In this document: positions 38,614-58,206 of the stretch, one piece after another
Layout: each line of letters begins with the position of its first letter
Position numbering within the stretch: position 1 is the stretch's first letter
Assembly: GCA_040755095.1 (NCBI GenBank)
Contig: JBFMBH010000005.1
Coordinates: forward strand, 479-64,478
From: Thermodesulfobacteriota bacterium
GTDB taxonomy: Bacteria > Desulfobacterota > Desulfobulbia > Desulfobulbales > JBFMBH01
Direction of reading: 5' to 3'
Length of the DNA stretch: 64,000 bases
Translations under genes and position numbers: made by a program
The notes under the pieces: model-generated
What the model saw: the letters and a program-made list of their open reading frames with translations, nothing else
What the model was told of the DNA's origin: nothing
Databases searched by the model: none

Positions 38614-38719
38614 TCCCCCCTCCTCGCAACGCTTGGGTGGTCCCCTTGGTTCCCTTCTCTATTCCCGTTCGCAGATGGTGGCGGCGCCGGACCGGAAAGC
38701 ATCCGCTGCTGCCGCCCGC

Positions 38720-39904: not shown

Positions 39905-40269
39905 GATGCATCCTCAGCGAGCAATGAGCACGAAGCGCCCCACCTGAGGACCTTGACGCCTTCCCTCCTCCATCGGGGGCTTGTCAGGGTCCGGGCCGAC
40001 CGCAACGCCTCGATCGTGTGCGCAGACGAGGTCGCACCTGGCGACCTCGCCCATCAGCAGGAAGCCCGAGGGGCGATCCTGCGACGTCAATGGAGAGGGT
40101 GGGAGTCAGCTCCCTGTGAACGGTGGGTGGCGTGTGGCGCCGGTGGGGCACCGAAGCTCCACAAAGCCATTATAGAACAATGGCCGAGGCATTTCCAGAT
40201 GCCGCTGCCGGTCGCGGTTGCGAGAAAATCCCTTGACAAGGGCAGCGGGGGGCGACTAATGGACAAGGC

Positions 40270-41718
40270 ATGCGCTCCTTCATCCTCCTTCTTGCGTTGG
40301 TGCTTGCTGCCTGTACCCCCGGTCCTGGCAAGCCTGGGCGTCAGGTGCCGCCGGCCGACGCCGCTGGCCTGGCCGTCTATCTCACCGCCTCGGAGCCGCT
40401 GGCCACGGAGGTTTCGTTCGAGCTCAATGGGCTCGCCCTCTTCAATGGCGTCGAATGGCTGCTCCTGGATCCGGGGCCCCAGACGATCAGCGCCCAGGCC
40501 GTGGGGGAGGGTCAGATGCTGTTGGGCTTTTTTGCGGTGCCGCCCGGGGATTACACCCGGCTGCGGGGCACCGTCGGCCCGGCTCGGGTCTCCGAACGGG
40601 GCGACGGCGTCCGCCTGGTGGGCCAGGCCGAGGAGCGGGAGCTGGGCTTTGAGGCCAAGATGCGGCTGGTGGCCGGTCAGCGGGCCTGCCTGCTGGTGGA
40701 CTGGCGGGTGCGCTCGTCTCTCCAGGACAAGGACTGGACCCCGGTCCTGACCGTGACGCCGCAGATGCCGGCCATGACCCGGGAGCTCCTCTATGTGGCC
40801 TGCGACGATATCGACACGGTATTCGTGGTGCGCATGGATACCAACCACGTGGTGGCCGCCTTTGGGGTCCGGGGCGGGCCCACTCAGCTGCGCTACGATG
40901 ACGCCGTGCCCATCCTCTATATACTGGCAAGAGAGACTCGCCTGATCACCGGCCACGACCCCTACGGCAACCGCCAGCTGTCGCGGGCCTTCCTGGGAGG
41001 GCTGCCCGAGCCCCGGTACTGGGATCTGTCCAGGGATGGCCGCTGGGCGTTCGTGACCGACACCGACCAGGCGCTCCTGCAGAAGATCGATGTCACCTCC
41101 GGCTTCGTGGCCCGCCAGCAGTCCTTGAGCCAGCGTCCGGGACGGGTGTTGTTTGTGGCCGAGGCGGAGTCGGGACGGCTGCGCCGGGAGCTGGTGGCGG
41201 TCGCCATGCCCCAGGCCCAGCTGGTGGCCTTCTTCGACCCCGAGACCCTGGAGGTGCTGGAGCCGGCCAGCCTGACGCCGGTCGGTGCCGGCGCCTTGAC
41301 CGGCGTTGACTCGGGCATGGAGCCCGGCCAGATGCTGATGGTGCAGGGCCTCCTCCATGTGGCGGATCGGTTGTCCGGCACCGTGACCATCTACGACCTC
41401 AACCGGGGGCGGCATCTGGCGCGGGTGGCTGTGGGCCTGGAGCCGGTGGCCCTGCTGGCCGGCAAGCAGGACCGCGTCTATGTCAGCCACGCCGGCAGCA
41501 GCAACGTCATGGCCCTGGCCCGGGGCCATCACGCGGTGCTCAAGGATGTGTTCGTGGGGCCGCAGCTGGGGGAGATGGCTCGCCACCTGCGGCGGGGCAG
41601 CCTCTATGTGGCGGTGCAGGGGACCCAGGCCGTGGCGGTCCTGGATCTCAACTCCGACGCCCTGCGGGCGCAGATCCCCTTGCCGGGGCGGCCGGTCTCC
41701 CTGCTGGCCGTCGAATAG
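40270..41718 (+). CDS. Lipoprotein with N-terminal beta-sandwich (DUF4382-like) and YVTN/YncE-like beta-propeller
   Basis: Lipobox LVLAAC. Repeated units such as LYVACDDIDTVFVVRMDTNHVVAAF, RWAFVTDTDQALLQKIDVTSGFV and LYVAVQGTQAVAVLDLNSDAL. Confidence 0.7.
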   Translation: MRSFILLLALVLAACTPGPGKPGRQVPPADAAGLAVYLTASEPLATEVSFELNGLALFNGVEWLLLDPGPQTISAQAVGEGQMLLGFFAVPPGDYTRLRGTVGPARVSERGDGVRLVGQAEERELGFEAKMRLVAGQRACLLVDWRVRSSLQDKDWTPVLTVTPQMPAMTRELLYVACDDIDTVFVVRMDTNHVVAAFGVRGGPTQLRYDDAVPILYILARETRLITGHDPYGNRQLSRAFLGGLPEPRYWDLSRDGRWAFVTDTDQALLQKIDVTSGFVARQQSLSQRPGRVLFVAEAESGRLRRELVAVAMPQAQLVAFFDPETLEVLEPASLTPVGAGALTGVDSGMEPGQMLMVQGLLHVADRLSGTVTIYDLNRGRHLARVAVGLEPVALLAGKQDRVYVSHAGSSNVMALARGHHAVLKDVFVGPQLGEMARHLRRGSLYVAVQGTQAVAVLDLNSDALRAQIPLPGRPVSLLAVE

Positions 41719-41729
41719 GCGGAAAAAGA

Positions 41730-41838: not shown

Positions 41839-42939
41839 CTAGTCCTTGTTGGTATGACACTTGAAGCAGCCCGAGTCTGCAGCTGCGCCGGCATTGTGGG
41901 CGTTCATGGTGGCGTAGTCCCAGCGGAGCAGGTCGTCGAAGGATGTGCCGTGTGCCCGGTGGCAGGAGATGCAGGTGACGATGGCCTGGCCGGCCACCGC
42001 CGGATTGACCGCTGCGGCCAGGTTGACCACGCCCACCGGCGCCTCGGCGTTGTCGACGTACGCGGCGTACTCGGAGCCGGTGGCGTCGCTCAGGTCGAAG
42101 TCCACCGGATGCCGCAGCCAGGGCGCGCCGAAGGTGGAGTCAACGCCGGTGTTGCCGGTGCCGCTGTGGAAGTTGCCGTGGCACTCGGCGCACAGGAAGC
42201 TGATGGTGCTCTTGTCCACCGAGGCCAGCTCGTCGCTGATCCGGTCCTTGCCCTTGTACTTGTTGCGATCAACGCTGGTCTCGTTCTCCCAGTCGTTGTC
42301 CTCGACGCCGGTGATCCCCATCAGGAAGCGGAAGCTCTTGCCCACGGTGCTGCCGTCGAGGGTGGCATCATCGGCATGGTGGGCGCCGGAGATGTCCTGG
42401 AAGTCGTCCGCTGCCGCATGCTTGCCGTGGCAGCCATAGGAGCCGGCGCAGGTCAGCTGGCTGGCCCAGGAGGCGGCACCGCCCGCCACCTGCGAGCCGC
42501 CGGTGGGGGTGAAGGTGGCGTCGTTGCTCCAGCCGGGGGGCGTCAGGCCAAAGGCCGCGCCATCCTGGGTGGCGATCCCCTTGACGTTGTGGCCCTTCTT
42601 GTCGACATCACCCTGGGCGTCCGCCACCCAGTAGAAGTTGCCGCCGGCCAGCACGCTGGTCACCGGCGAGGGGGCAGCGTCGGTCTTCAGGACCAGGGGG
42701 ATGTTGCTGGAGCCGCCCAGGAGCGCCGTGCCGCTGTGGCAGCCGACGCAGTCGCCCCGGGTCAGGGCCCGTTGCGGGGTGTTTGTGCCGTCATTGGCCA
42801 TGCTGGCGCCGTTCTGGGAGTTGTGCATGGTGTGACAGTCCGAGCAGACGCCGGTGACCCGGGCCTCGGCATTCCCGCTCAAGCCGCAGAATGCCAGCGC
42901 GAAACCGAAGGCAACGATGGAACCATACAGCTTCTTCAT
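41839..42939 (-). CDS. OmcS-like hexahaem cytochrome c, paralogue 2
   Basis: Signal peptide MKKLYGSIVAFGFALAFCGLSGNAEA. Motifs CSDCHTMHNSQ, CVGCH, CAGSYGCH, CAECH, WLRHP, CISCHRAHG and C-terminal GCFKCHTNKD. GAAGGAG RBS before ATG 42939. Confidence 0.85.
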   Translation of the reverse strand: MKKLYGSIVAFGFALAFCGLSGNAEARVTGVCSDCHTMHNSQNGASMANDGTNTPQRALTRGDCVGCHSGTALLGGSSNIPLVLKTDAAPSPVTSVLAGGNFYWVADAQGDVDKKGHNVKGIATQDGAAFGLTPPGWSNDATFTPTGGSQVAGGAASWASQLTCAGSYGCHGKHAAADDFQDISGAHHADDATLDGSTVGKSFRFLMGITGVEDNDWENETSVDRNKYKGKDRISDELASVDKSTISFLCAECHGNFHSGTGNTGVDSTFGAPWLRHPVDFDLSDATGSEYAAYVDNAEAPVGVVNLAAAVNPAVAGQAIVTCISCHRAHGTSFDDLLRWDYATMNAHNAGAAADSGCFKCHTNKD

Positions 42940-43607
42940 GTCAGTGCTCCTTCTTCGAGAAGAGGTGTCGGTGATGCATGACCTGCGATGTTGTTGTTGG
43001 TAAGTCACATCCCTCCCTGTGGTCGCATTATGCTCATTTGGGCCTCATCCCGGTAATGAGCGTACTGTCCATCCCATAATGACCTCCTCATCCCCAAGAG
43101 TTGTCGTTGAGAGCACTCCTTGCTCCAATTATCTCAGATTCCGATCCCTCATTCCATAAGGCAAGTGCTGTATTCTTCTCTGAGCACCTGCTCATCATCC
43201 GTCAGCCGTCTGCTTTGCTGCTACGCGGATCAGTCACTCGGGCTCATGGCGTTGAAACCAGTCCTTGGAATCAGTGTATCATAGCTGCCAAGGGGATTGA
43301 ATGGGATAAGTGTTTATTTTTGCCTAAGCCCATGCTTAGCATGCAGTAAGCCCAGGTGATTTGGCGATGGGCAGTTTTTGGCCATTGTTCAATGTAAAGA
43401 AAACGGTATGGCTTCGGCAAGAGAGCATGTCTTCACCTCTGGCGGGCAGAAGATGAAGCGACTTGACAGATCCGGAGTGGGCGAAGGGGGGAGGAGCGGG
43501 GAATACCCCTCAGACAACGGCGCGTCCAGACGGACCTGGACGCTGCTTCAGGCCCGGTACCGCTTCGAGAAGGGCGAGCTTCTGAGAGGGCGAGGCAGGT
43601 GAAACGC
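42940..43607 (-). promoter_or_regulatory. Long, visibly A+T-enriched non-coding leader/promoter region upstream of OmcS-like gene 2
   Basis: 668 bp without a credible ORF, clearly lower in G+C than the flanks. Possible sigma70-like TTGCCG-N18-TACATT (minus strand, 43391-43420). Nested hairpin ATTAT...GCTCATT-N16-AATGAGC-ATAAT at about 43024-43080. Palindrome CTAAGC-ccat-GCTTAG at 43324-43339. Confidence 0.4.
43522..43543 (-). terminator. Possible terminator after the 12-haem cytochrome gene
   Basis: 8-bp stem GCGTCCAG-N6-CTGGACGC, followed on the minus strand by GCCGTTGTCTG (only a weakly U-rich tail). Confidence 0.4.
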
Positions 43608-45445: not shown

Positions 45446-45496
45446 ATTATATGGTAGGCTCGACCGGGAACAAGGGAAAAGTGGCCAAGAAACAAG

Positions 45497-45522: not shown

Positions 45523-45565
45523 GGAGGAGCTTCTCGAACAGCTCCGAAAGAGGCCGGCGATGAGG

Positions 45566-46675
45566 CTAGTCCTTGTTGGTGTGGCAGCGGAAGCAGCCGG
45601 TGTCGCTGTTGGCGCCGCCGCCGCCGGCGATCATGTTGTCGTAGTTCCAGCGTAGGAGGTCCGCGTTGTCGGAGCCGTGGGCCCGGTGGCAAGAGATGCA
45701 CAGCACGATGCCGTCCGCCGGAGTGGCGGGAAGGGCAGCGGTGCCGCGGGTCGTGGCGCTCAACGGCGCGCCTACCGGAACTTCCTCGTCATAGGCGTTG
45801 GTGCCCGCCGTGCCGTAGGAGGCATAGGAATCCCAGGCCTGGGAGGCGTTGCCGAGCCGGAAATCGGTGGGATGACGCAGCCAGGGAGTGCCCCCGGGGT
45901 CAGCCTGGCGGGTGGTGTTCAGGTTGGTGTTGGCCGAGGCGCCGACGCTGTGGAACAGGCCATGGCATTCGCCGCACAGGTAGCTGATGGTGGTGGTGTC
46001 CTCGTAGCCGGTGATGGTGCCGGATCCCACGGTGGCGCTGTTGCCGTTGATGCCGTCGTAGGCATTGCCGTCCGTGTCGCCGAAGCCCTTGTAGCTGGCC
46101 GAGGACTCCGTGCCGTCGATGCCCGCCAGCAGCCGGAAGCCGACCGCGGTGTCGTTGTGGTGACCGCCGGCGATGGCCACGGTCTCGTTGGCGTAGCTGT
46201 GGTTGCCGTGGCAGCCGAAAGAGCCGGCGCAGGTCAGCCGGTTGGTGCCCCAGCCGGCGGCGTTGGCGGGCAGGCCTGCAGCCACCGCCATGTAACCGGG
46301 TGGGGTATTGGCCAGCACGCCGTCCTGGGCGCCGGTACCGTTGACGTTGTGCTTGGTGTTGTCGGCGTTGGCGCTGTTGATGTAGCCGCCGGGCAGGACT
46401 GTGGCGGTCGAAGCGGCGTCACCCCAGATCGCCGGCGCATCGACGCTGGTCAGCCGGTCGGCGGCGTTGTCCTGCTTGTGGCAGCCGGCACAGGTGTCAA
46501 TGGTGAGCGAGTCGTTGGTGGCGGTGGTGTTGCCCATCACCGTGCCGTTCTGGCTGTTGTGCATGGTGTGGCAGTTGGCGCAGGGGCCGGTGACCTTGGC
46601 ATCGGCGCTGCCACCCAGGCCAGCCAGCACAGCGGCCGCACCGACCGCAATCAGGGTGCCGTACAGCTTCTTCAT
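45566..46675 (-). CDS. OmcS-like hexahaem cytochrome c, paralogue 3
   Basis: Signal peptide MKKLYGTLIAVGAAAVLAGLGGSADA. Motifs CANCHTMHNSQ, CAGCH, CAGSFGCH, CGECH, WLRHP, CISCHRAHGS and C-terminal GCFRCHTNKD. AAGGAGG RBS before ATG 46675. Confidence 0.85.
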   Translation of the reverse strand: MKKLYGTLIAVGAAAVLAGLGGSADAKVTGPCANCHTMHNSQNGTVMGNTTATNDSLTIDTCAGCHKQDNAADRLTSVDAPAIWGDAASTATVLPGGYINSANADNTKHNVNGTGAQDGVLANTPPGYMAVAAGLPANAAGWGTNRLTCAGSFGCHGNHSYANETVAIAGGHHNDTAVGFRLLAGIDGTESSASYKGFGDTDGNAYDGINGNSATVGSGTITGYEDTTTISYLCGECHGLFHSVGASANTNLNTTRQADPGGTPWLRHPTDFRLGNASQAWDSYASYGTAGTNAYDEEVPVGAPLSATTRGTAALPATPADGIVLCISCHRAHGSDNADLLRWNYDNMIAGGGGANSDTGCFRCHTNKD

Positions 46676-46903
46676 GGTCTTGCCTCCTTGTTGTTTCGTT
46701 TTACGGGTTCTTGGGCCAGACTGCGGGACTACAGTTCGGCATCCCAGTCGTGGACTCCGGCCCGATGTCTTGTCTCCGTATGCTGCTCTACTACCCCATT
46801 TGCCATTTGCCTGCAAGGGAATTCGCCCTGCCATTCATGGTCGCCACTGTACGCGATCGGAAAGGGAAAAGATATACGGCGGCTGGCGTATTTTGTTCTG
46901 GCC

Positions 46904-46938
46904 GGTGCTTAGTTCATGATAAGCACTTCTTAAGCACC
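46904..46938. promoter_or_regulatory. Candidate operator: three GTGCTTA/TAAGCAC half-sites in the divergent intergenic region
   Basis: GGTGCTTA-gttcatga-TAAGCAC-ttct-TAAGCACC. It lies between OmcS-like gene 3 (minus) and the OM-barrel/lipoprotein cluster (plus). Confidence 0.4.
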
Positions 46939-47091
46939 CGCCAGGGCTGGCTTGCGCACTGCATTTCGCGGTAGCCGGACCGGGGCAAATATGGTAAGGG
47001 AATGCCCGGATCCAAGGCCCCGGGCCGGTTTTGGCGTCAGGCCAGGGGGGCGACAGCCGAGCGGCCACTCGCTGCTCACAAGGAGATCTCG

Positions 47092-49254
47092 TTGAAGTCC
47101 AGACAGACCTCGGTTGTCGGCCTTCTCGCCATGCTGGGGGCGGCATGCGGGCTTGGCGTTTCCTGGCGCCAGGCCGGGGCCGGGCCGGTGGCCATCAACG
47201 CCACCCTGGACTACTCCGAGACGCGGGGGGACAGGGACAATGACAACGCCTTCCGCCAGACCTTCCAGGTGAGCCTGGCGGATGATATCGCCGTCACCGA
47301 TACCGTAAGCCTCACCCCGGGCTTCCGGCTCAACAACGACTCCAGCGGCGAGCGCAGTGGCGCCTACGCCATCGACCCCAACCTGGGGCTGGCCATGAAT
47401 ACCGACCTGTTCAGCATGAACGGGTCGTACTCCACGACCACCCGCAAGTCCTCGGGGGATCAGCCCAAGACCTTCTCCCAGGCCTGGGACGTCACCTGGG
47501 CCAGCCGCTGGGACCAGCCCTGGCCCTCCTTCCCGGTGCCGGTGCCCTCGGTGCGCGTCGCCTACGGCGGCAACACCACCGAATCCGGGGACGACCTGAC
47601 CGGCCGCAGCTCCTTTGTCACCGGCACGGTGACCGAGGAGTACGACATCTCCATCTTCCAGCTCGCCTACCGCTTTTCCCGGAACATGAACTGGGACGAG
47701 ATCGACGAGATCACCGGCACCAACGACACCCATGATTTCAGTGTCGACGCCAGCGACCGCTATCTGGACGACCGGGTGCAGCTGTCCATGAGCCACCAGA
47801 CCACCCTGGACCGCCGGGTCACCGAATTCAAGGGCGGGGCCGGCAAGGTGATCGAGGAGGGCTTCACGTTGTCGGAGGACGCCTTTGCGGGGCAGGACCC
47901 TCGACCCGCAGAGGAAAATATCTTCATGGACCTCAGCCTCGCCAACGGGCTCGTGAACAGGACGCTCACGGATCGGGTCGTGAACATTCGAGCGGGGGTC
48001 GATACCCCTGGCGCCATTAGCGGGGAGGAGTTCTGGAATATCCTCGTGGAGGTGCCAGCGGCGTTACAGGAGGTCTCCCGCATCTCTCTCTGGCTGGCCG
48101 AGGAGCTTGCGCTGGAGCCGGAAGGTCTGGACACGGAAGGCGACTACAGCTTTGACGTCTACGGGGGCATGACCCAGAATGGTCCCTTCCACCGGCTGAC
48201 GGGGGCGGATGGGCTCGGCGTGTATCAGTCAGGCGTTTTCCCGTCGGCCGGCGGCCTGCCGTTGGGGGGAGGGCTGCGGCCCCGTTTCCTGATCGACCTG
48301 CCCGCTGGGGCGTGGAATGGGGAGAACTTCCTCAAGGTGGTGTGCCGGATTGAGAAGCCAGTCTCCGTGGCGGCCTGGATCAGCGAGGTGACGCTTTCCC
48401 ATGTGCGCACCCTCACCACCGACGACGAGAAGGACGTCAATATCAGCAACACCTACAAGACCGGTCTGACCATGAACGTCGTCCCGGCCATGGACTGGCG
48501 CTTCTCCACCGGCCTGGTGCACACCCTGCGGGAAAGCTCGCCCGGGGGCGAGCGCACGGACCTGACCCACAACATGAACCTGTACTGGACCCCCAACCGT
48601 TATTTCCGGCCAGTGACGGCGTTCAACCGCAGTATCTCCTCGGGGGACGAAGAGGATACCCTGGAGAACCGCTCCTACAGCATGCGGGTGGCCTCCATGC
48701 CCCTGGATGCCCTGTCCACCTCCCTGGGCTTCACCCGCACCGAGGGCTACACCAACCAGGCCCTGGAGACCATCGGGGATGCCCTGTTTCTGAGCCTGGA
48801 CTCCCAGATCCTCCCCGATTTGTCCGCCAGCCTGGCCGCTTCCTCCACCAAGACGACCAACCGGGTCAGCGGTGCCACGGCCTCGGCCATGCAGGTGGAT
48901 CTGACCGGCAACATGCGGGTGACGCCCCGGCTCACGGCGGACGCCACCCTGGAATTCAGCGAGGCGGACGAGGAGCCCTTCGGCTATGGCGCTGCCCTGT
49001 CCTGGCGGCCGACGGATGTTCTGGCCTGCACCTTGGACTACGAAGGGGGCAACGAAAGCACCATCACCTTGTCTCCGGCCGTGCGGCTGAGCCGGGAGCT
49101 GCAGCTGACCGGCTCATTCGTCCACAGTGACGAGGACGATCTGTTGTCCGTGCAGTCCAAATGGCTGCTCAACGAGCTCATGACCCTGGACCTCCGCTAC
49201 CGGTGGCGGGAGGAGGAATGGGCCTGGAACGTGCGCTTGACAGCAGGCCTGTGA
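47092..49254 (+). CDS. Putative outer-membrane beta-barrel protein with a large inserted soluble domain
   Basis: TTG 47092 lies 6 nt after AAGGAG. Signal peptide KSRQTSVVGLLAMLGAACGLGVSW. Both ends are rich in short alternating polar/hydrophobic strands with Asn/Asp/Gly/Ser turns (LDYSETRGDRDNDNAFRQTFQVSL...; ...LTGSFVHSDEDDLLSVQSKWLLNELMTLDLRYRW). No family recognised by eye. Confidence 0.6.
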   Translation: MKSRQTSVVGLLAMLGAACGLGVSWRQAGAGPVAINATLDYSETRGDRDNDNAFRQTFQVSLADDIAVTDTVSLTPGFRLNNDSSGERSGAYAIDPNLGLAMNTDLFSMNGSYSTTTRKSSGDQPKTFSQAWDVTWASRWDQPWPSFPVPVPSVRVAYGGNTTESGDDLTGRSSFVTGTVTEEYDISIFQLAYRFSRNMNWDEIDEITGTNDTHDFSVDASDRYLDDRVQLSMSHQTTLDRRVTEFKGGAGKVIEEGFTLSEDAFAGQDPRPAEENIFMDLSLANGLVNRTLTDRVVNIRAGVDTPGAISGEEFWNILVEVPAALQEVSRISLWLAEELALEPEGLDTEGDYSFDVYGGMTQNGPFHRLTGADGLGVYQSGVFPSAGGLPLGGGLRPRFLIDLPAGAWNGENFLKVVCRIEKPVSVAAWISEVTLSHVRTLTTDDEKDVNISNTYKTGLTMNVVPAMDWRFSTGLVHTLRESSPGGERTDLTHNMNLYWTPNRYFRPVTAFNRSISSGDEEDTLENRSYSMRVASMPLDALSTSLGFTRTEGYTNQALETIGDALFLSLDSQILPDLSASLAASSTKTTNRVSGATASAMQVDLTGNMRVTPRLTADATLEFSEADEEPFGYGAALSWRPTDVLACTLDYEGGNESTITLSPAVRLSRELQLTGSFVHSDEDDLLSVQSKWLLNELMTLDLRYRWREEEWAWNVRLTAGL

Positions 49255-49408
49255 TGTGCTCTACTCGCCCCGAAGTCTGCGCTGCTGCGTCCAGTCCAGG
49301 GCCGGCGGCCACGGATCCGGAACCGATTGTGCTGTGTGGGGCGACGGCATTGGCGGCAGGCGGCCGTGCTCCGGACCGGCGGCATTCTGGCAGAGAGGAC
49401 TTTTCCAT

Positions 49409-50041
49409 ATGGCTGGCTGGTGGCCGATCCGGCGGCAGGTGCGGAAGGCGGGCGGCAGGGGATGGCAGGGGGCCGTGGCGGCTCGCCTGGGGGGACTTCT
49501 GCTGGTGGTCCTGGTGGCCGGTTGCAGCTCCCATGCCCTGACCTATTATGTCCGGGAGGGCGCTGACCTGACCTTCATCAAGAAGGTGGCGGTCATGCCC
49601 CTGGCCAACAACACCAAGGAGAAGTTTGCCGCCGACCGGGTGCGCAACATCGTGCTGACCCAGGTTCTGGTGGACAGCCTGTTCGACGTCACCGAGACTG
49701 GCCAGCTGGAGAAGATCCTGGAGGAGGAGGCCGGCAAGGCGGATGCGCCTCTGGATGAGGCCCTGGCCCGCCGGCTCGGCAAGCGGTTGTCCGTACAGGC
49801 GTTTCTCCTGGGATCGGTGGATGCCTACGACGAGGAGCGCAAGGGCAACTACTCGTATCCCGTCGTTGCCATGACCTTGAAGCTGGTGGATGCCGAGACC
49901 GGTCTCATTCTGTGGCAGGCCAGCGGCTCTTACAGCGGCTACAGCAGCTGGAGCCGCATCCTCGGCACCCAGGGCAGGGATCAGTCGGCGGTGACCTTTC
50001 GTCTCGTGCGGTCGCTTCTGGCCAGTCTCAGCGGCGACTAG
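49409..50041 (+). CDS. Lipoprotein, PelC/CsgG-N/LpoB/DUF799-like alpha/beta fold, paralogue 1
   Basis: Lipobox LVAGC. KKVAVMPLANNT...DSLFDVTE...LGKRLSVQAFLLGSVDAY...VAMTLKLVDAETGLILWQA. Confidence 0.7.
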   Translation: MAGWWPIRRQVRKAGGRGWQGAVAARLGGLLLVVLVAGCSSHALTYYVREGADLTFIKKVAVMPLANNTKEKFAADRVRNIVLTQVLVDSLFDVTETGQLEKILEEEAGKADAPLDEALARRLGKRLSVQAFLLGSVDAYDEERKGNYSYPVVAMTLKLVDAETGLILWQASGSYSGYSSWSRILGTQGRDQSAVTFRLVRSLLASLSGD

Positions 50042-50098
50042 TCTGGCCTTCGCTCCGTGAGGACGCATCGTCCAGCAGGCCTGCCGTCCCACCGCCTC

Positions 50099-51640
50099 AT
50101 GAGCCTCGGCTTCTCCCCCGGTGCCTGGCCCCGCCTCCTGATCCTCCTCTTCCTGCTGGGCCTCCTGCCGGCAGCCCCGGCGCCGGCCGGTGCCGCCAGC
50201 GGCAAGGTGGCGCTTCTGCCCTTCGACGATCTGTCCCGGGGCGCCAATTCGGTGGACCTGGAGATGACCACCCAGGTCGCCGATCTCCTGACGGTGTCCG
50301 GAATCAACGTGGTGGATGCCCAGGCGGTGCGGGCGTATCTCGCGACCAACCGCGTGCGCCACACCGGGATGATCGATCTCTTCAACACCATGGGCATGCG
50401 GGAGGCCCTGGGTGTGGACTGGATCCTTACCGGCACGGTGACCCACCGCCGCCCCGAGCCGCAGCCGGCCCTGGGCCTGTCCCTTCTCCTGGTGGACGCC
50501 CACACCGGCAAGGCCGTCTGGGCCTGGAACGAGAGCCTGGCCGCCACCGAGCTGGTGAAACCCCTGGGAATCGACGCTGTCACCAGTCTGGCCGCGATCA
50601 CCGATCTGGTCCTGGCCCGGGTGCCGTTCCAGTTTCCGGAGCCCGGCGAAGCCCTGGTGGACCTGCCCATTCCGCCATACTCGGTGGAGAGCTTCGATCT
50701 GAGCTCCCGGTTCGTCGCCGGCAATGGCCGGATGGAGTGCCGGGTGGGCTTCCGTTTTGATGAGGAGCCGCCCACCGACGTCTTCCTGAAGCTGGGGGGC
50801 AAGCGCATCAGTCTGGTGTCCATGGCCAAGGAGAGCGGCACCTACTGGGCGAGCTGGCAGGCGCCGGAGGCAGAGGGGCGCTATTCGGTCGCCACGGTTC
50901 TGCGGTGGAAAGGCCGGCGGGAGGAGTCCAAGTTCCTGGCCTCCTACCGGGTGGTGAACGAGCCGCCGACCGTGTCCCTGCGCTTCGGCAACGGCGTGCC
51001 CCTGGGGGATTCCGGCGTCATCGCCTTCCGCTCCTTCCTGAGCATCAGCCCGGTCGTCAACAAGACCGCTCCCGTGGCTTCGTTCCGCATCCAGATCGAA
51101 GACCCGAAGACCGGCGCCTTCCTCATGGACTTCAAAAGCATCGAGAGCCTGCCCGAAGCCATGGTCTGGCGCGGTGCCGGTGATCAGGGGCCTCTGGGCT
51201 CCGGCTACTACCGGCTCATCCTCACCGTCACCGATGTCATGGGCAACGAGATCGCGGATTCGGCGGAGCTGTACCTGGGCAAGAATCAGCCCCGGGTGCT
51301 GCCCGCCATGGAGCGTCTCGAAGACGGGAGGGTTCAGCTCCACCTCATGGCGGTCCCCGATCCCCAGACCGGCGAGATGGAGCCGGTGCCGGTGAAGTAC
51401 TGGCAGCTGCGGGTCACGGATCGGGAGCGCAACTTCCTTCTGGAAGAGGAGGGAGAGACGCTGCCGGCCACCGTCACGCTGGATCCCGGCGCCGAGACGG
51501 TCTTTCTGGTCTCCTACCTGGTGCGGGATGTCCTGGGCAACGAGCGCCACGCCCGCAGCGAGACCGTGGAGCTGCCCGTTACCGGCGGCGGCGAGGACCA
51601 AGACAAGAAGGAGACCGATGTCTGGCATGAGGAGTTCTAG
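50099..51640 (+). CDS. Secreted protein: the same alpha/beta fold (paralogue 2) + three Ig-like/FlgD-Ig-like beta-sandwich domains
   Basis: Signal peptide ...LLILLFLLGLLPAAPAPAGA. GKVALLPFDDLS...GINVVD...LGVDWILTGTVTH...LSLLLVDAHTGKAVWAW. Later MVWRGAGDQGPLGSGYYRLILTVTDVMGNE (FlgD-Ig-like). Confidence 0.7.
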   Translation: MSLGFSPGAWPRLLILLFLLGLLPAAPAPAGAASGKVALLPFDDLSRGANSVDLEMTTQVADLLTVSGINVVDAQAVRAYLATNRVRHTGMIDLFNTMGMREALGVDWILTGTVTHRRPEPQPALGLSLLLVDAHTGKAVWAWNESLAATELVKPLGIDAVTSLAAITDLVLARVPFQFPEPGEALVDLPIPPYSVESFDLSSRFVAGNGRMECRVGFRFDEEPPTDVFLKLGGKRISLVSMAKESGTYWASWQAPEAEGRYSVATVLRWKGRREESKFLASYRVVNEPPTVSLRFGNGVPLGDSGVIAFRSFLSISPVVNKTAPVASFRIQIEDPKTGAFLMDFKSIESLPEAMVWRGAGDQGPLGSGYYRLILTVTDVMGNEIADSAELYLGKNQPRVLPAMERLEDGRVQLHLMAVPDPQTGEMEPVPVKYWQLRVTDRERNFLLEEEGETLPATVTLDPGAETVFLVSYLVRDVLGNERHARSETVELPVTGGGEDQDKKETDVWHEEF

Positions 51641-52304
51641 TTCGGCCAGCACCGGCTGCTGGCCGCCCGGGTCGAAAAGCCGCTCCGGGGGGACCCCTGG
51701 CGGTTCGCATCCAGGTCGGGTACACTGGCTCGTCACCGTTCTTCTGGCGTGTCTCGCCGCCGGCTGCGGCAAGGCCCAGCACAGTCTGGGCCTGGTGGCC
51801 GCGGGGGGGGAGGGGATCTGCCGGGTGGCGGTGCTGCCCTTCCGGGACCAGGGCAAGGTGCCCTTTGGCGGGCACGTGGTCCAGCGGACGTTCACCGCGG
51901 AGCTCATCGCCAGCGGCCGCTTCGATGTAGCCCTGGAGGGTGAGGTGCTGGCCTTTTTCCGGGAGAACCGGCAGCTGCCCCAGGCGACCCTGTCCCGGGA
52001 CTTCTACATCAAGATGGGCCAGACCATGGGCGTGGACGCCATCGTGGCGGGCACGGTGCTCGGCATGAGCGAAGGCTCCGAGGGCCGGGATATGGTGGTG
52101 CCAGAGGTGGCCTTCTCCCTGGAGCTGATCCGGATCCGGGATGGCAAGCCCCTGGTGGTGACCCACCACCACCGTGCCGGGGATGAGTATCGATGGCTCA
52201 TGCACGTCGGGGTGGTGCAGACCATTTCGGAGCTGGTGAGCCGGATGAGCAAGGAGGCGATCGAGGAATGGCGTATCTTGGGCTTCGAGGGTTGTCGGTT
52301 GTGA
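51618..52304 (+). CDS. Lipoprotein, same alpha/beta fold, paralogue 3
   Basis: Lipobox CLAAGC. CRVAVLPFRDQG...SGRFDVAL...MGVDAIVAGTVLGM...AFSLELIRIRDGKPLV. AAGGAG RBS; the start overlaps the upstream stop by 23 nt. Confidence 0.7.
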   Translation: MSGMRSSSSASTGCWPPGSKSRSGGTPGGSHPGRVHWLVTVLLACLAAGCGKAQHSLGLVAAGGEGICRVAVLPFRDQGKVPFGGHVVQRTFTAELIASGRFDVALEGEVLAFFRENRQLPQATLSRDFYIKMGQTMGVDAIVAGTVLGMSEGSEGRDMVVPEVAFSLELIRIRDGKPLVVTHHHRAGDEYRWLMHVGVVQTISELVSRMSKEAIEEWRILGFEGCRL

Positions 52305-53992
52305 AGCGGGCCAGCTTGCTGGGCCTCGTGACGGTGCTGGTGCTCTGGGGCTCCCTGGCACAGGCGGTGTGGCCCTTCGGGGAACGGCACCTCCTGGTTC
52401 TCAATGGCGCCGGGCACAGCAAGGCGGATTTTCTGCAATTCTGGGAGCAGTGGAAGGAAGAGGACAGCCCGGTTCCCGACAGCCCGGATTTCTGGATCGA
52501 CTGGCTGCTGTTTTATCAGGAGGCCGAGCAGATGGAGCTGGGCGATGCCCCGGCGGTGCAGGCCAAGCTGTTCACCTTCCTCAAGGTGCGGGCCCTCATG
52601 CAGCTGCGCCAGGACGAGGTGACCAGCAGGATGGCCGCCGTCGATGAGGAGCGCCTCTGGCAGCGCTATTTGCAGGACGAGGCGCCCCTGTACAAGATCG
52701 AGAGCGTGCTCATCGCCGACCAGGCGGCTGCTGGCCGCTTCGCTGAGCTGGCGCGGGCTGGCCGCCCGTTCGCCGAGGTCGTCACCGATCCCAGCCTCGG
52801 CCTGGCCGAGCCGCCCAAGGTGATCTCGTCGGACTGGCTGCGGAAGAGCAAGGTGCCCGAGACCTACCGGGAGGATCTGGCGAAGGCCGAGCTCGGCTCC
52901 GTGCTCGGTCCCCTGTTCTGGGAGCCCAAGAAGACCTACTACCTGGTGCGGAAGGTAGAGCAGCAGGCTGGCAGCCAAGAGGACTTCCAGAGGATCCGCA
53001 AGGACATCGAGGAGCGGCTCTTCAAGGAGGAGGACGGCCGCCTGACCAGAGACCTCCTGGTCCGTCTGATGAAGGAGTACGAGGTGGTGACCCACGACGA
53101 CCGGATCGAAGCCCTGCCCATGAACGGCGGCTCCCAGGAGCAGCTGAGCGCCGTGGTGGTGGAGATGAAGGGCGGCAGGACGGTCACCGGCGGTGAGCTC
53201 GTGCAGATGGTGATGCGGGATCTGTCCATGCGGATGCGGCCCAATGCCCAGGGCTCTTTCGACATGGTGCATGGCGATTTCAATGACGCCAAGCGCCGGG
53301 TGCTCATGGATTACCTGGGGGCGGAGCTGACGGTTCGGGCCGCCCTGGACCGTCACTATGAGCAGAAGCCGCCCATCAAGGATGTGTTCGATTTTTACCG
53401 CCAGCGGCGCATGATCCTCGAGCTGAAGAACCGGCTGTTCCGCACCCAGGTGGAGGTCAGCGACCAGGAGGCCCAGGCCTTCTACCAGGCCAACCAGCAG
53501 CTGTTCACCCACCCCGCCTCCCTGGAGCTCGCCATCCTGAGCACCCGGGACGAGAAGCTGGCCGATTTCCTGCGCAAGGAGCTTCTCTCGGGCAAGGATT
53601 TCTTCGAGGTGGCCAACCATGTGGTGGCCGGCGGGGTGAATCCGACCAATGTGCTGGTGAGCGATCTCGATCCGGCGATGGTCGAGGCCCTGTCCGGAGT
53701 GGCCGAGGGGGCGCAGGTGGGCCCGGTGAAGATCGGCGAGGATACCCACTTCATCAAGCTTATCCGCCGGCGGGAGTCGGTGGTGCGGCCCTTGGACGAA
53801 GTCAAGCACATGATCACCAGGAAGCTGCACGAGGAGCGGATCCAGGAGAAGGAGGAGGCCTTTCGGCAGAAGCTGCGGGCGGTCTCCAAGATCGAGGTGG
53901 ATGACGGCCAGTGGCAGGAGGTGGTCCGCACCCTGAAGGCCCAGGAGGCGGCCCGGCAACAGGAGAAGGACAAGCCGGCAAAGGGCAGTTGA
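52301..53992 (+). CDS. SurA/PpiD-like periplasmic chaperone with parvulin-type peptidyl-prolyl isomerase domain
   Basis: GTG 52301 overlaps the upstream stop (GTGA); the alternative is ATG 52268. Signal peptide VKRASLLGLVTVLVLWGSLAQA. C-terminal rotamase-like ...FFEVANHV...VSDLDPAMVEALSGVAEGAQVGPVKIGEDTHFIKLIRRR. Confidence 0.75.
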   Translation: MKRASLLGLVTVLVLWGSLAQAVWPFGERHLLVLNGAGHSKADFLQFWEQWKEEDSPVPDSPDFWIDWLLFYQEAEQMELGDAPAVQAKLFTFLKVRALMQLRQDEVTSRMAAVDEERLWQRYLQDEAPLYKIESVLIADQAAAGRFAELARAGRPFAEVVTDPSLGLAEPPKVISSDWLRKSKVPETYREDLAKAELGSVLGPLFWEPKKTYYLVRKVEQQAGSQEDFQRIRKDIEERLFKEEDGRLTRDLLVRLMKEYEVVTHDDRIEALPMNGGSQEQLSAVVVEMKGGRTVTGGELVQMVMRDLSMRMRPNAQGSFDMVHGDFNDAKRRVLMDYLGAELTVRAALDRHYEQKPPIKDVFDFYRQRRMILELKNRLFRTQVEVSDQEAQAFYQANQQLFTHPASLELAILSTRDEKLADFLRKELLSGKDFFEVANHVVAGGVNPTNVLVSDLDPAMVEALSGVAEGAQVGPVKIGEDTHFIKLIRRRESVVRPLDEVKHMITRKLHEERIQEKEEAFRQKLRAVSKIEVDDGQWQEVVRTLKAQEAARQQEKDKPAKGS

Positions 53993-54098
53993 AGGCAGCT
54001 GCGAGCGTCTTGCAGGGAGGGATGGAGCCTCGGCCGGTGGCCTGTGACCTGGGCGAAGGCCGGATCAGGGTACAACCGTTTGCGAAGAGGGACTCTCG

Positions 54099-56123
54099 AT
54101 GATGCAGGAGACACGCCAAGTGGGCAATGGCAGTCGGATGGGGCTCTTGGGGAGACAGGGAACGGTGTGGCTGTTGACCGCCGCGCTGCTCCTGGGGCTG
54201 GCCGCCTGCGTGCCCCAGCCGTCCGAGTCGTCCCGATCTGCCGGCAAGGCCAAGAAGAGCTGCGTGGAGTGCCACGAGACCGAGTACAAGGCCTTCCAGA
54301 CCGGGGTGGTGCACAAACCGGTACAGGAGGCCAAATGCGACGGCTGCCATGACCCCCACGGCATGATCGGCGGCACCTTGCTCAAAGCGGATGAGCCGGA
54401 GCTGTGCTATTCCTGCCACGCTGCCGTCCGCCAGGCGGTCCAGGGGGCGGCTCACGGCCATCCGCCGCTCCAGAGCACGACGGCCGCCTGCACCAGCTGC
54501 CATGCTGTCCACAACTCCCCCCATGCCAAGCTCCTCAAGGAGCCGGCCGCTACCTTGTGCTTCAAGTGTCACGATCAGACGGAGTTCGGCCGCACCAACC
54601 GTCACCAGCCGCTGCAAACCGGGTGTGCCTCATGCCACCAGGTGCATGGCGCCCCGGCAGCCAAGCTGCTGCCCAAGGAGCCGGACGCCTTCTGCCAGGA
54701 CTGCCACCAGCCGGACGGCAAGGGGATGGAGGCAGGCCACCGGGGGTACCCCGTGCAGGGGGGCTGCGTCTCTTGCCATCAGCCCCACTCGGCCAGTCGC
54801 GCCAAGCTGATCCGGGAGGTCCCGCACCAGCCGATGCTGGAGGGGCAGTGCGAGTCCTGCCATGCCGGCAAGGGCAAGCCCGAGCCACTCGCCCTGACCG
54901 GCACGGGCAGCAGCCTGTGCCGCGGCTGCCATGACGATGTGACCGCCGGTCAGACCCAGAGCGTCCATGCACCGGTCACCGGGGGCGAGTGTCTCTCCTG
55001 CCACGCCCCCCACGGCAGCAACCACCAGGCCATGTCCCGTCAGGCCCCGGAAAGGCTGTGCTTCGAGTGCCATACCTTCAAGCAGATCGGGCCGGAGAAG
55101 ACAGGGCAGACCGAGAACGGCCACCAGCCGGCTGCCGAAGGCCGGTGCCTGACCTGCCACGCGGCCCACGCCGCACCGGTCAAGCCGCTGCTCAAGAGCC
55201 CTGCCGCCGACCTGTGCTTCTCCTGCCATGGCAAGGAGCCGGGGTTGGCCGACCGGAGCCACCAGCCGGTGAAGGAGCGGCGCTGCACCTTGTGCCACTC
55301 GCCCCACGAGTCCCAGGGCAGCCATCTTCTGGCGGGAAGCGAGCAGGAGATCTGCCTGACCTGTCACAAGAAGACCGGGGACGATATGACCCTGGCCTAT
55401 CTCCATCATCCCTTTGCCAACGGCGATTGCACCGGCTGCCACGCCGCCCACGGCTCCAGAAGCGCCGGCATGCTCAAGGCCAGCGGCGTTGCCCTGTGCG
55501 CCTCCTGCCACCAGAAGCTCATCGAGGAGCGGACGGCCAATATGAAGAAGCATCAGCCCTTTGCCCAGGGCGAGTGCATGAAGTGCCACGCCCCCCATGG
55601 CTCGGACAACCCCTTCACCCTGGTGCACAAGCTGGCGGACACCTGCTTCACCTGTCACAGCGGCCTGGAGCGCCAGATCGGCTCGGCCCGGCAGGTCCAT
55701 GAACCGGTGGTCAAGCGGAACTGCACCGCCTGTCATACGCCGCATGCCTCGGCCCAGGACCACCTGATCACCCGGGCGATGCCCGAGCTGTGCCTGGCCT
55801 GCCACAAGGAGGTGGCGGAATTCTGGAGCGGCGGCTTCGCGCATGAGCCGGCGGTCTCCGGGCAGTGCGCCAGCTGCCACGTCAGCCATGCCGGCGCCGA
55901 GGCCAAGCTGCTGGCCCGCAGCGCCTCAGGTCTGTGCGCCACCTGCCATCAGATCAGTGATACGGAGATGGTGCGGATCCACAAGGGGATCCGGCCGTCG
56001 GAAAAGAGCTGCACCAGCTGCCACGACAGCCATGGCTCTCCCACCCAGAGCCTGACCTTTGCGGTGGAGCATGCCCCCTTCAAGGAGCGGGACTGCAAAC
56101 CATGCCACGAGGAGGCGAAGTGA
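54099..56123 (+). CDS. Lipoprotein multihaem cytochrome c with 26 CxxCH motifs
   Basis: Lipobox LLGLAAC. Twenty-six CxxCH motifs counted, in a paired arrangement (C..CH.[PV]H......L.......LC..CH). The start may be ATG 54138. Confidence 0.9.
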   Translation: MMQETRQVGNGSRMGLLGRQGTVWLLTAALLLGLAACVPQPSESSRSAGKAKKSCVECHETEYKAFQTGVVHKPVQEAKCDGCHDPHGMIGGTLLKADEPELCYSCHAAVRQAVQGAAHGHPPLQSTTAACTSCHAVHNSPHAKLLKEPAATLCFKCHDQTEFGRTNRHQPLQTGCASCHQVHGAPAAKLLPKEPDAFCQDCHQPDGKGMEAGHRGYPVQGGCVSCHQPHSASRAKLIREVPHQPMLEGQCESCHAGKGKPEPLALTGTGSSLCRGCHDDVTAGQTQSVHAPVTGGECLSCHAPHGSNHQAMSRQAPERLCFECHTFKQIGPEKTGQTENGHQPAAEGRCLTCHAAHAAPVKPLLKSPAADLCFSCHGKEPGLADRSHQPVKERRCTLCHSPHESQGSHLLAGSEQEICLTCHKKTGDDMTLAYLHHPFANGDCTGCHAAHGSRSAGMLKASGVALCASCHQKLIEERTANMKKHQPFAQGECMKCHAPHGSDNPFTLVHKLADTCFTCHSGLERQIGSARQVHEPVVKRNCTACHTPHASAQDHLITRAMPELCLACHKEVAEFWSGGFAHEPAVSGQCASCHVSHAGAEAKLLARSASGLCATCHQISDTEMVRIHKGIRPSEKSCTSCHDSHGSPTQSLTFAVEHAPFKERDCKPCHEEAK

Positions 56124-57307
56124 TGCGCGGCTTTTTCCTGATCGTCGTGATGGCGGCCGGCCTCGGCTTCACCCTCGCCGAGGCCCAGGCCGCCCGGACC
56201 AACTGCACGGCCTGCCACGACCCCGAGAGCTTCGCTGGCCGGGTGGTGCATGGCCCGGTGGCGGAGAAGAAATGCTTTTCCTGCCACAGCCCCCACGCCT
56301 CCCGCCATGAAGCCCTGCTCTATGGCAAATCCCCGGAGCTGTGCTTCAGCTGCCACAAGGATATCGACGAGGGGCTGAAGAAGCAGGAGATGCTGCACGG
56401 CCCGGTCCGGCAGGGCAAGTGCGCCGACTGCCACCTGCCGCATGCGGGCAAGGACGATGCCCTGCTCAAGGCCGGGGTACCGGAGTTGTGCTTCGGCTGC
56501 CACAAGGAGGTGGCCGGCCGGGGTGCCCGGCATACCCATGCGCCGTTTGCCCGGGGCCAGTGTCAGGCCTGCCACGTGGCCCACGGCTCCAGCACGGTCG
56601 CCCTGCTCAAGGCCGGGGTGCCGGGGCTGTGCCTGGGCTGCCACAAGGACGAAGGCGCGATCCGCGGCAAGCATTTGGGACGGGCCCTGGCGGGGATGGA
56701 CTGCCTCACCTGCCACAGCGGCCACGGCTCGGACCACAACGCCCTGGTGCGCAACAACCTCCACCCGCCGTTCAAAGACAAGGACTGCGGCACCTGCCAC
56801 AACCGTACCGACAAAGGGGTGGCCCTGTGCTTCGACTGCCACGAAGGCATCCAGAGCTCCTTCAACTACACCCACAACCACATGATGTCGGTGTCCGGGG
56901 TGGACAACATCTGTCTGTCCTGCCACAACGCCCATGCAGCGGACGACAAGAAGATGCTGGCCGGCACCCAGTACGGTGTCTGCAAGCGCTGTCACGCCGA
57001 CACCTTCAAGCGCCGGGAGGGGGCGTTGCACACCCATCCCAACTGGGGGGTCTGCACCAATTGCCATCAGGCCCACGGCTCCAACCAGATCGCCCTCATC
57101 CGGGGGGATGGCAATGGCACCTGTGAGCAGTGCCATGCCACCCAGGGCAAGTTTGTCCACCCCATCGGCGACAAGGTCCGGGATCCCCGTTCCGGCCAAC
57201 CGGTGACCTGTGTCACCTGCCACAATGTCCATGGCACCGCCTTCAAGTACAACCTCCGCCTGTCGGGGGAGAAGGACCTCTGTGTCCAGTGCCACAAGAG
57301 CTACTAG
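56123..57307 (+). CDS. Periplasmic/secreted multihaem cytochrome c with 16 CxxCH motifs
   Basis: Signal peptide MRGFFLIVVMAAGLGFTLAEAQA. Sixteen CxxCH motifs counted. Its ATG overlaps the upstream stop (TGATG). Confidence 0.9.
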   Translation: MRGFFLIVVMAAGLGFTLAEAQAARTNCTACHDPESFAGRVVHGPVAEKKCFSCHSPHASRHEALLYGKSPELCFSCHKDIDEGLKKQEMLHGPVRQGKCADCHLPHAGKDDALLKAGVPELCFGCHKEVAGRGARHTHAPFARGQCQACHVAHGSSTVALLKAGVPGLCLGCHKDEGAIRGKHLGRALAGMDCLTCHSGHGSDHNALVRNNLHPPFKDKDCGTCHNRTDKGVALCFDCHEGIQSSFNYTHNHMMSVSGVDNICLSCHNAHAADDKKMLAGTQYGVCKRCHADTFKRREGALHTHPNWGVCTNCHQAHGSNQIALIRGDGNGTCEQCHATQGKFVHPIGDKVRDPRSGQPVTCVTCHNVHGTAFKYNLRLSGEKDLCVQCHKSY

Positions 57308-57330
57308 CCCCGAGGAAGGAGACTCCGACC

Positions 57331-58206
57331 ATGAAGAGGACGCTCGCAGCCGCCCTGATGGCGGTCATCCTGGTCGCCGCGCCAGCGGCAGCCGATCGTT
57401 CCCCGTGGAAATGGGACAAGGCCCTGACCGGCGATGACGCCGGGGTGCATCTGCTCAGGCCGGCCAGCCTGTTCTGGGATGCGGCCGAGGAGCGCTACTA
57501 CGTGGTGGACACCATGAACTCCCGGCTTGCCTCCTACGATCGGGAGGGGGTCTTCCTCAAGCAGCTCCGGGCGGGCGGTCAGCTCGGGCTGCCGGTATCC
57601 ATGGGCCGGGATCCCCGGGGCGGGATCTGGGTGGTGGATCGCAAGCTCAATGCCCTGCAGTACGTGGATCTCAAGGCCCAGAAGGTGGAGGCCAAGACGG
57701 TCAAGTACAAGGACGGGGCAACGGTGTTCCTGGACCGGCTGTTCGTGGACCCGGCGGGCACCATCTACGTTCTGGACCGGAGCCGGGGGGGGGTTCTGCG
57801 CCTGGGCCCCGATCTGAGCGTGACCACAGAGCTCCGGGGCGAGGAGAAGGCCGCTTTCGTGGACTTCAAGGTGAGGAGTGACGGCGTCTGGGCCCTGGAC
57901 CAGAGAAACCGTGCGCTGGTGGTTTTTGGCGCCGACGGCTCGGTGTCCCGGAAGATCGGTCTGAAGGGGGATCTGGAGTTTCCGGTCTCCTTCGATGTCG
58001 ACGAGCACGGGCTCATCTACGTTCTGGACCGGCACGCCGGCGCCATTCGGGTCTTCGACCGTGGCGGCGAATTCCGCTACGGCTTCCTGGAGGTGGGCAG
58101 CGCCCGGGGCCAGCTCTATTTCCCCTCTCAGCTGCTGTTCGACGGCCTGGGCCGCCTGTGCGTGGCCAACGAGGGCAACGGCCGGGTGGATATTTACCGG
58201 CGCTAA
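57331..58206 (+). CDS. Secreted NHL-repeat beta-propeller protein
   Basis: AGGAAGGAG RBS. Signal peptide MKRTLAAALMAVILVAAPAAA. NHL-like units such as FPVSFDVDEHGLIYVLDRHAGAIRVFD and FPSQLLFDGLGRLCVANEGNGRVDIY. Confidence 0.85.
   Translation: MKRTLAAALMAVILVAAPAAADRSPWKWDKALTGDDAGVHLLRPASLFWDAAEERYYVVDTMNSRLASYDREGVFLKQLRAGGQLGLPVSMGRDPRGGIWVVDRKLNALQYVDLKAQKVEAKTVKYKDGATVFLDRLFVDPAGTIYVLDRSRGGVLRLGPDLSVTTELRGEEKAAFVDFKVRSDGVWALDQRNRALVVFGADGSVSRKIGLKGDLEFPVSFDVDEHGLIYVLDRHAGAIRVFDRGGEFRYGFLEVGSARGQLYFPSQLLFDGLGRLCVANEGNGRVDIYRR

Follow-up and report, generated by a model that had tools for sequence, protein, structure and literature searches.

A predicted 42-haem MtrA-type cytochrome unit encoded by two coupled genes in an osc-type cluster of an uncultured Thermodesulfobacteriota bacterium

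The subject of this analysis is a group of three genes at 54099-58206 (+) of a 64,000-nucleotide stretch of DNA, hereafter the window, which is taken from contig JBFMBH010000005.1 (positions 479 to 64,478, forward strand) of the Thermodesulfobacteriota assembly GCA_040755095.1. The first two genes encode cytochromes with 26 and 16 haem-binding motifs, and the third encodes a six-bladed NHL beta-propeller protein. Comparison with homologues shows that, as judged from their sequences, the two cytochromes are two parts of one 42-c-haem unit composed of 21 paired-CXXCH modules; their genes are coupled in translation, and other lineages encode both parts as one fused chain. The three genes are assigned to a published system, the osc (omcS-companion) cluster described in Geobacter, and not to a new kind of system.

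One haem unit encoded by two genes

The gene at 54099..56123 (+) encodes an OscI-like, MtrA-like 26-haem lipoprotein cytochrome of 674 aa, whose 26 CXXCH motifs form 13 paired-CXXCH modules; its mature form has 638 aa and 68.2 kDa as the apoprotein. It is followed at 56123..57307 (+) by the gene of an OscJ-like, predicted periplasmic cytochrome of 394 aa with 16 CXXCH motifs in 8 paired modules, for which a type-I signal peptide (cleavage after AQA, before A) leaves 371 aa in the mature form. In both proteins the motifs are spaced by 22-29 aa, apart from a single spacing of 14 aa in the 16-haem protein, and there is one haem per 23-25 residues. By an estimate from typical Cys and His frequencies far less than one CXXCH motif would be expected by chance in such a protein, and in the other reading frames of the window the motif is confined to other cytochrome ORFs.

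Forty-two haem motifs in two overlapping genes, lying 106 bp from the upstream gene of a peptidyl-prolyl isomerase (PPIase), had been recorded in the initial annotation, and all of this is borne out. The stop codon of the first gene (TGA, 56121-56123) and the start codon of the second (ATG, 56123-56125) have one base in common within the sequence TGATG at 56121..56125 (+), 8-9 nt downstream of a GAGGAGG ribosome-binding site; an alternative ATG for the 16-haem gene is located at 56102. The PPIase gene ends at 53992, which leaves a gap of 106 nt before the ATG at 54099.

The same annotation had assigned a lipobox to the 26-haem protein. The motif, LLLGLAAC (L-A-A-C), is indeed present after a hydrophobic stretch at residues ~24-37, with no Asp at position +2, and the lipobox Cys is retained in most of 60 homologues (49 by a regular expression, ~55 when the sequences are read individually). 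What does not hold is its generality: most of the single-chain 42-haem homologues, including records from Zixibacteria, Latescibacterota and Gemmatimonadaceae, have ordinary signal peptides, and a lipobox-like Cys is retained in only a few of them. Lipid anchoring is therefore specific to certain lineages. Single-chain 42-haem versions found within Thermodesulfobacteriota are lipoproteins; the fused homologues are among proteins P0121-P0207.

To collect related loci, one genome per species was scanned with an alignment of the NHL family. This gave 72 loci, which belong to Desulfuromonadales, Desulfobulbales and further Thermodesulfobacteriota; among the sources are the isolates Malonomonas rubra, Pelovirga terrestris and Hydrosulfovibrio ferrireducens. 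Upstream of the NHL gene the haem-motif count is 26+16 in 50 loci and 26+15 in three further ones, where the first motif has the form CX4CH, and in five loci (L053, L059, L065, L066 and L067) a single ORF carries 42 motifs. The same numbers recur when the 120 best-matching homologues of the 26-haem protein are counted, with exactly 42 CXXCH motifs in 63 of them and exactly 26 in 40. The 42-motif homologues are ~986-1,090 aa long; where the record names an organism, this is a member of the Zixibacteria, Latescibacterota, Gemmatimonadaceae or Krumholzibacteria, or a bacterium of the FCB group.

When the concatenated pair from the window was aligned with 30 of the fused proteins, the 42 motifs corresponded one to one in 30/30. 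The 16-haem protein aligns with the C-terminal third of the fused chains; the split falls between motifs 26 and 27, and the signal peptide of the 16-haem protein stands in the place of a short linker. The stop codon of the 26-haem gene and the start codon of the 16-haem gene overlap or are at most 6 nt apart in all 48 related loci compared (48/48). A literature search on 42-haem cytochromes returned no relevant match.

Relationship of the cytochromes to MtrA

The modules of both proteins belong to the Pfam family Paired_CXXCH_1 (PF09699), with 13 domains in the 26-haem protein (E 3.7e-135) and 8 in the 16-haem protein (E 6e-76). The best named match among NCBIfam models is the DmsE/MtrA decahaem family, TIGR03508, which the 26-haem protein matches at 294 bits, above the curated cut-off of 192 but spread over six partial stretches of a repeat; the 164 bits of the 16-haem protein remain under this cut-off. 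The only strong sequence relative of known structure in the Protein Data Bank (PDB) is MtrA, chain A of entry 6R2Q (E 4e-18 for the 26-haem and 9.8e-21 for the 16-haem protein), followed by weak second matches to NrfB and MtrC. The sequence file gives this chain a wrong molecule name; it is the MtrA component of MtrCAB. An AlphaFold2 model of the 26-haem protein, with a pLDDT of 84.9, likewise has MtrA (6r2q_A) as its sole significant fold match in the PDB (E 4e-7, TM-score 0.52 when normalised to the target).

Conservation of histidines points in the same direction. Within the 26-haem family, 26 His residues outside the motifs are invariant, and in the alignment of the window pair with the 30 fused proteins 84 Cys, 42 motif His and 41-42 further His columns are conserved, the sole conserved Met column being that of the start codon. 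Since one conserved distal His is present per haem, these sequences indicate that every haem of the 42-haem unit is bis-His ligated.

The initial annotation had set the Geobacter poly-c7 cytochromes as the comparison for these proteins, and this comparison has to be given up in favour of MtrA-type paired-CXXCH chains. The GSU1996-type poly-c7 assignment was rejected on the grounds that the motifs occur in pairs and not in triplets, that no Met is conserved besides the start codon, and that there is no sequence or fold match in the PDB to solved c7 cytochromes, PpcA or GSU1996. A certain likeness to the Geobacter poly-c7 proteins (GSU1996 with 12 haems, GSU2210 with 27) does exist: in each case the chain is long and has many haems, the bacteria are related, and secondary Cytochrome_C7 matches to Pfam are found here, but the proteins of the window have neither the trihaem periodicity nor a conserved Met ligand. 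With MtrA/DmsE they share the paired-CXXCH modules, the apparent bis-His haems and the very small amount of polypeptide per haem. They differ from that family in having 26 + 16 haems instead of 10, in the lipoprotein nature of the first protein, in an extrapolated length about four times that of MtrA, and in the lack of an adjoining MtrB-family porin gene, the nearest barrel gene being four genes away and its product having no match to the MtrB family in Pfam.

Conserved gene order and probable identity with the osc cluster

Searches with the window proteins by tblastn revealed one co-directional gene order in nearly every sufficiently long locus: a ~700-aa protein, an LpoB-like lipoprotein, a ~500-aa protein, a second LpoB-like lipoprotein, the PPIase, the 26-haem cytochrome, the 16-haem cytochrome, the NHL protein and the OmcS-like cytochromes. 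In the window the first eight of these form a co-directional block at 47092-58206, which is syntenic in ~60 related genomes. The stop codon of the PPIase gene overlaps the start codon of the 26-haem gene in the relatives (median -14 nt, n=56). With both junctions, PPIase/26-haem and 26-haem/16-haem, overlapping or nearly so in the relatives, the cytochrome genes are, on sequence grounds, in the same operon as the envelope genes, and the 106-nt gap in the window is an exception. A scan of the plus strand at 47002-58206 for promoters and terminators found no terminator-like site, which is weak evidence at 67% GC. Two proposals of the initial annotation, that the cytochrome genes continue the envelope cluster and that they are linked to OmcS-like filaments, are thus supported by the overlap in 56 loci, by the conserved order, and by hexahaem genes that flank the block here and come directly after the NHL gene in relatives. 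In 67-68 of the 72 loci the block has OmcS-like genes as neighbours.

The propeller gene, 57331..58206 (+), begins 23 nt past the end of the 16-haem gene and has its own GGAAGGAG site. Its OscK-like product, 291 aa long, carries a signal peptide but lacks a lipobox, and matches the Pfam NHL family (E 4.6e-10) as well as the 6-bladed propeller family DUF5128. The family profile matches solved six-bladed NHL propellers, such as TRIM71, Brat and PknD-derived designs, and the protein is, by its sequence, a typical non-enzymatic six-bladed binding scaffold. While 477 homologues were found, an exact-sequence look-up of the protein itself gave no record. An NHL homologue is located directly downstream of the 42-haem unit in 72/72 loci, all of which were retrieved with NHL as the query, and downstream of the 42-haem gene in three of five distant loci retrieved independently via the cytochrome. 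In these distant lineages the order of the genes is permuted: 42-haem cytochrome, NHL protein, OmcS-like cytochromes, ~710-aa protein, LpoB-like lipoproteins, PPIase. One locus from Latescibacterota has a 42-haem gene without the NHL and PPIase genes. In the window, folE2 comes after the NHL gene.

According to a 2025 preprint, all Geobacter genomes with the OmcS-like GSU2501 also have the eight-gene block GSU2500-GSU2493, which was recently tied to the maturation and secretion of OmcS nanowires, and in which GSU2495 is a ~70-kDa protein with 26 haems. A 2026 paper equates GSU2501 with oscC, GSU2495 with oscI and GSU2494 with oscJ, and gives OscI and OscJ as predicted periplasmic proteins in G. 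sulfurreducens. For the osc operon (Shen et al. 2025, Cell Chem Biol 32:239, as cited) the proposed assignment is OscH to folding, OscE, OscF and OscG to secretion, and OscD to morphology. The modelled lengths listed in the supplement of the 2026 paper are 473 aa for OscD, 701 for OscE, 169 for OscF, 367 for OscG, 548 for OscH, 627 for OscI, 372 for OscJ and 260 for OscK. The corresponding values in the window are 720 aa for the counterpart of OscE, ~200 for OscF, ~550-600 for OscH, 638 (mature) for OscI, 371 (mature) for OscJ and ~265 for OscK (291 in the precursor).

Since the order, domains and sizes fit and OmcS-like genes flank the block, the products of 54099-58206 were filed as OscI, OscJ and OscK homologues, an assignment that uses the order of the genes, their domains and the sizes of the proteins and not an alignment with the Geobacter sequences. 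In Geobacter and in the window alike, a PPIase, a 26-haem cytochrome of ~70 kDa, a second cytochrome and a propeller occur in the same order, and each cluster also contains OmcS-like hexahaem genes along with those of a ~700-aa and a small LpoB-like protein. The clusters differ in an extra LpoB-like gene here and in the protein at the OscG position, which at ~500 aa is larger than OscG (367 aa). In the window the OmcS-like genes lie upstream of the block on the opposite strand; in Geobacter they are also upstream, but share the strand of the block, and in most relatives they are found downstream of it. As the osc cluster was published in 2025, the novelty of the locus is lower than had been assumed in the initial annotation.

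Envelope genes of the block

The first gene of the block, 47092..49254 (+), encodes an OscE-like protein of 720 aa that models as an outer-membrane barrel of ~29-30 strands with an inserted beta-sandwich domain, as judged from an AlphaFold2 model (pLDDT 86.6, pTM 0.71) and Foldseek comparisons. In the model 11 + 18 long strands are separated by a central domain at residues 253-420. The Foldseek matches are TonB-dependent receptors, MtrB, LptD and ushers, that is, barrels of 22 to 26 strands; all TM-scores are low, the best among solved structures being that of MtrB (0.37/0.40). Pfam contains no match for this protein, and a profile search of the PDB yielded only a marginal CBM32/discoidin-like match in the inserted domain (E 0.019). 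A word-indexed search for its family gave the protein alone, while an exhaustive representative search gave 174 representatives at 50% clustering. An identification of the barrel with OscD was considered and dropped; the protein sizes in the supplement fit OscE.

Next come an OscF-like LpoB/CsgG-like lipoprotein with the lipobox LVAGC at 49256..50041 (+) (PF13036 LpoB, E 2.6e-8; CsgG, E 1.8e-5), conserved in 50/72 loci, and a ~500-aa protein with a signal peptide and no Pfam match at 50057..51640 (+). The latter, an OscG candidate by its position, is conserved in 51/72 loci, and its N-terminal region is also present in the distant locus L076. The gene at 51528..52304 (+) encodes the second LpoB-like small lipoprotein, which matches LpoB weakly, is conserved in 56/72 loci and has no separate counterpart in the size list of G. 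sulfurreducens Osc proteins. The last envelope gene, 52193..53992 (+), is that of the OscH-like PPIC-type peptidyl-prolyl isomerase (PF13145, E 8e-17), the homologues of which have ~545-550 aa.

OmcS-like genes and other parts of the window

In this window, and likewise in L001, its closest relative, the cluster's second half lies in inverted orientation; here it is located upstream on the minus strand, at 38074-46834, while in relatives the OmcS-like homologues come after the NHL gene on the same strand. Two OmcS-like hexahaem cytochromes, each with five CXXCH motifs and one CX5CH motif, are encoded at 45566..46834 (-), divergently from the block, and at 41839..43008 (-). The second of these matches the solved OmcS structure 6ef8_A over residues 54-368 (E 7e-8). 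Between them lie the gene of a 12-haem cytochrome, recognised by its haem count and Pfam (43608-44408, -), and directly after it that of a second NHL propeller, recognised by Pfam (44471-45445, -). This pair, at 43608-45445 (-), resembles 12-haem/NHL clusters reported in Desulfovibrio ferrophilus.

The remainder of the cluster, 38074..41718, contains on the minus strand the genes of a 179-aa membrane protein that is HAMP-like and of a 5-haem cytochrome whose domains include an fn3-like one, both as matched by Pfam, and on the plus strand that of a 482-aa lipoprotein. In loci L004, L048 and L049 genes resembling this set by size, haem count and N-terminal sequence, as seen in ORF lists, are located downstream of the NHL gene. 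The 482-aa lipoprotein (40270-41718, +) has no Pfam match; by size and position only it is a candidate for OscD (473 aa). Lipoproteins of similar size (478 and 489 aa) occur downstream of the NHL gene in two of the four relatives examined. OscD itself, according to the supplement of the citing paper, was confidently predicted over only 0.5%.

At 46898-46944, between the divergent OmcS-like and barrel genes, an inverted repeat, CTGGCCGGTGCTTA / TAAGCACCCGCCAG, is accompanied by one more half-site, TAAGCAC. The repeat may serve both divergent operons as an operator. A response regulator of the LuxR/GerE type is encoded at 37326-37979. An Rfam scan of the whole window found one tRNA only, and no riboswitch near the cluster.

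It is also worth mentioning that a second set of cytochrome and NHL genes is present on the minus strand at 7610-19455. It comprises an OmcS-like cytochrome of 506 aa (17935-19455, -) with seven haem motifs and the N- and C-terminal signatures of the other OmcS-like proteins, an 879-aa protein with NHL and InlB B-repeats (15477-18116, -), and a 2,617-aa protein with 13 CXXCH motifs and a GEVED domain (7610-15463, -). At 2629-7585 and 20824-24868 the genes of three ABC-type substrate-binding proteins (PF04392) each adjoin those of large Cache/HAMP/PAS histidine kinases, so that the cytochrome clusters seem to be surrounded by several sensory systems.

Comparable combinations of genes are known elsewhere. 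In D. ferrophilus IS5 (DFE_448-451 and DFE_461-465) multihaem cytochromes also occur together with beta-propeller proteins and extracellular cytochromes, but the haem numbers there are 12 and 14, and the likeness is drawn from gene content and not from homology. Minimal OmcE clusters consist of two multihaem cytochromes, two propeller lipoproteins, a filament subunit and a large beta-barrel.

Possible function of the 42-haem unit

The reading preferred here, with roughly even chances of being correct, is that the 42-haem unit is an osc-type periplasmic wire that feeds the base of an OmcS-like filament, with the NHL protein as a docking partner. In the MtrA structure 10 haems extend over 80 Å. 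If the haems of the unit are packed as in MtrA, they would form a rod of roughly 33-36 nm, so that the statement of the initial annotation that an extended chain could span the periplasm appears correct on this scale. A length of ~33-36 nm is about the width of the Gram-negative periplasm and goes far beyond what is needed for crossing the outer membrane, which favours a periplasmic relay. Such a rod would extend through the periplasm, where donors in the inner membrane or the periplasm would load it with electrons, and it would hand these on to the OmcS-like filament at its base, where the filament would cross the outer membrane via the OscE-like barrel. In this lineage the N-terminal lipid would hold one end of the rod at a membrane, and the OscK-like propeller, the next gene in tight linkage, could be a docking or positioning partner. 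The reported induction of gsu2495 upon deletion of the OmcB conduit fits an electron-transfer role.

Several points weigh against a periplasmic wire. PpcA-E are reported to charge OmcS filaments directly in vitro. In KN400 and its long-term-evolved descendant LT, a high-current G. sulfurreducens line, oscJ is reported to be frameshifted; it therefore seems dispensable on anodes, where OmcS is dispensable as well. In one Zixibacteria locus the 42-haem gene stands essentially alone, without an OmcS-like, NHL or PPIase neighbour. The length of the rod, finally, is an extrapolation from MtrA and does not come from a haem-containing model.

The charging of OmcS by PpcA-E in vitro, reported as sufficient, would agree with a role in assembly, in which the 42-haem unit and the propeller would serve, for example, as a scaffold whose redox poising or templating maintains OmcS-type subunits in a reduced or ordered state during folding by the PPIase and export through the barrel, and would not supply electrons in the steady state. 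The position of the genes, inside the proposed folding (OscH) and secretion (OscE/F/G) genes and translationally coupled to them, in a block to which the maturation and secretion of nanowires have been ascribed, is in accord with such a role. It is nevertheless considered unlikely: for a function like that of a chaperone, 42 bis-His haems, all strictly conserved and arranged linearly as in MtrA, would be a very high price, and the Zixibacteria locus has the 42-haem protein and no filament or secretion genes. More doubtful still is a porin-cytochrome conduit, independent of the filament or docked to it, in which the MtrA-like chain would be partly threaded through the OscE-like barrel and the lipoprotein would be placed at or beyond the outer membrane. 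A conduit of this kind had been proposed in the initial annotation, and that part of the proposal which concerns the upstream 720-aa protein stands, as it models as a large barrel with MtrB as its best-scoring solved relative. The chain is MtrA-like, the lipobox of the 26-haem protein lacks Asp at +2, and a porin, a periplasmic multihaem cytochrome and a lipoprotein cytochrome, which in Pcc/Ext systems come from contiguous genes and make up one trans-membrane complex, are each represented in one putative operon, but not adjacent to each other. Four genes separate the barrel gene from the cytochrome genes; the barrel and the lipoproteins (OscE/F/G) are proposed to act in filament secretion, and the PPIase (OscH) in folding. 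The low TM-scores to all solved barrels, the ~29-30 strands and inserted domain compared with 26 strands in MtrB, and the absence of a lipobox from most fused homologues also speak against the conduit, and with ten haems sufficient for crossing the outer membrane 42 would be far in excess.

The 42 haems could also be a periplasmic store of electrons, a capacitor used when external acceptors are unavailable, with no defined geometry or partner. The very high density of haems and their apparently uniform bis-His ligation would suit a store. In MtrA-type cytochromes bis-His ligation goes with low redox potentials. The predicted periplasmic location of OscI and OscJ in G. sulfurreducens would suit it too, but a store leaves unexplained why the number of haems is invariant, why the order of modules is conserved across phyla, why the NHL partner is obligatory and why linkage to the filament genes is so tight, and it is accordingly thought very improbable.

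A bolder extension of the periplasmic-wire reading, put forward only tentatively and probably not correct in full, is that the constant number of 42 reflects a fixed-length (~33-36 nm), hard-wired molecular ruler that extends across the entire periplasm and connects a donor in the inner membrane with the OmcS-type filament at its base. Were this so, diffusing carriers such as PpcA would be needless for the charging of filaments.

Significance

The window places an uncultured Thermodesulfobacteriota bacterium, known from a metagenome-assembled genome of 67% GC, among the carriers of a complete OmcS-type filament machinery. With the system itself already published, the remaining interest is in the function of OscI, OscJ and OscK and in the conserved count of 42 haems. 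There is still debate on how cytochrome filaments are supplied with electrons at their base, and current models rely on small diffusing periplasmic cytochromes; a 42-haem MtrA-type chain inside the filament cluster is an obvious alternative supply line. Its fixed haem number, its natural fusion in other lineages and its NHL partner lead to testable predictions on length, partners and deletion phenotypes.

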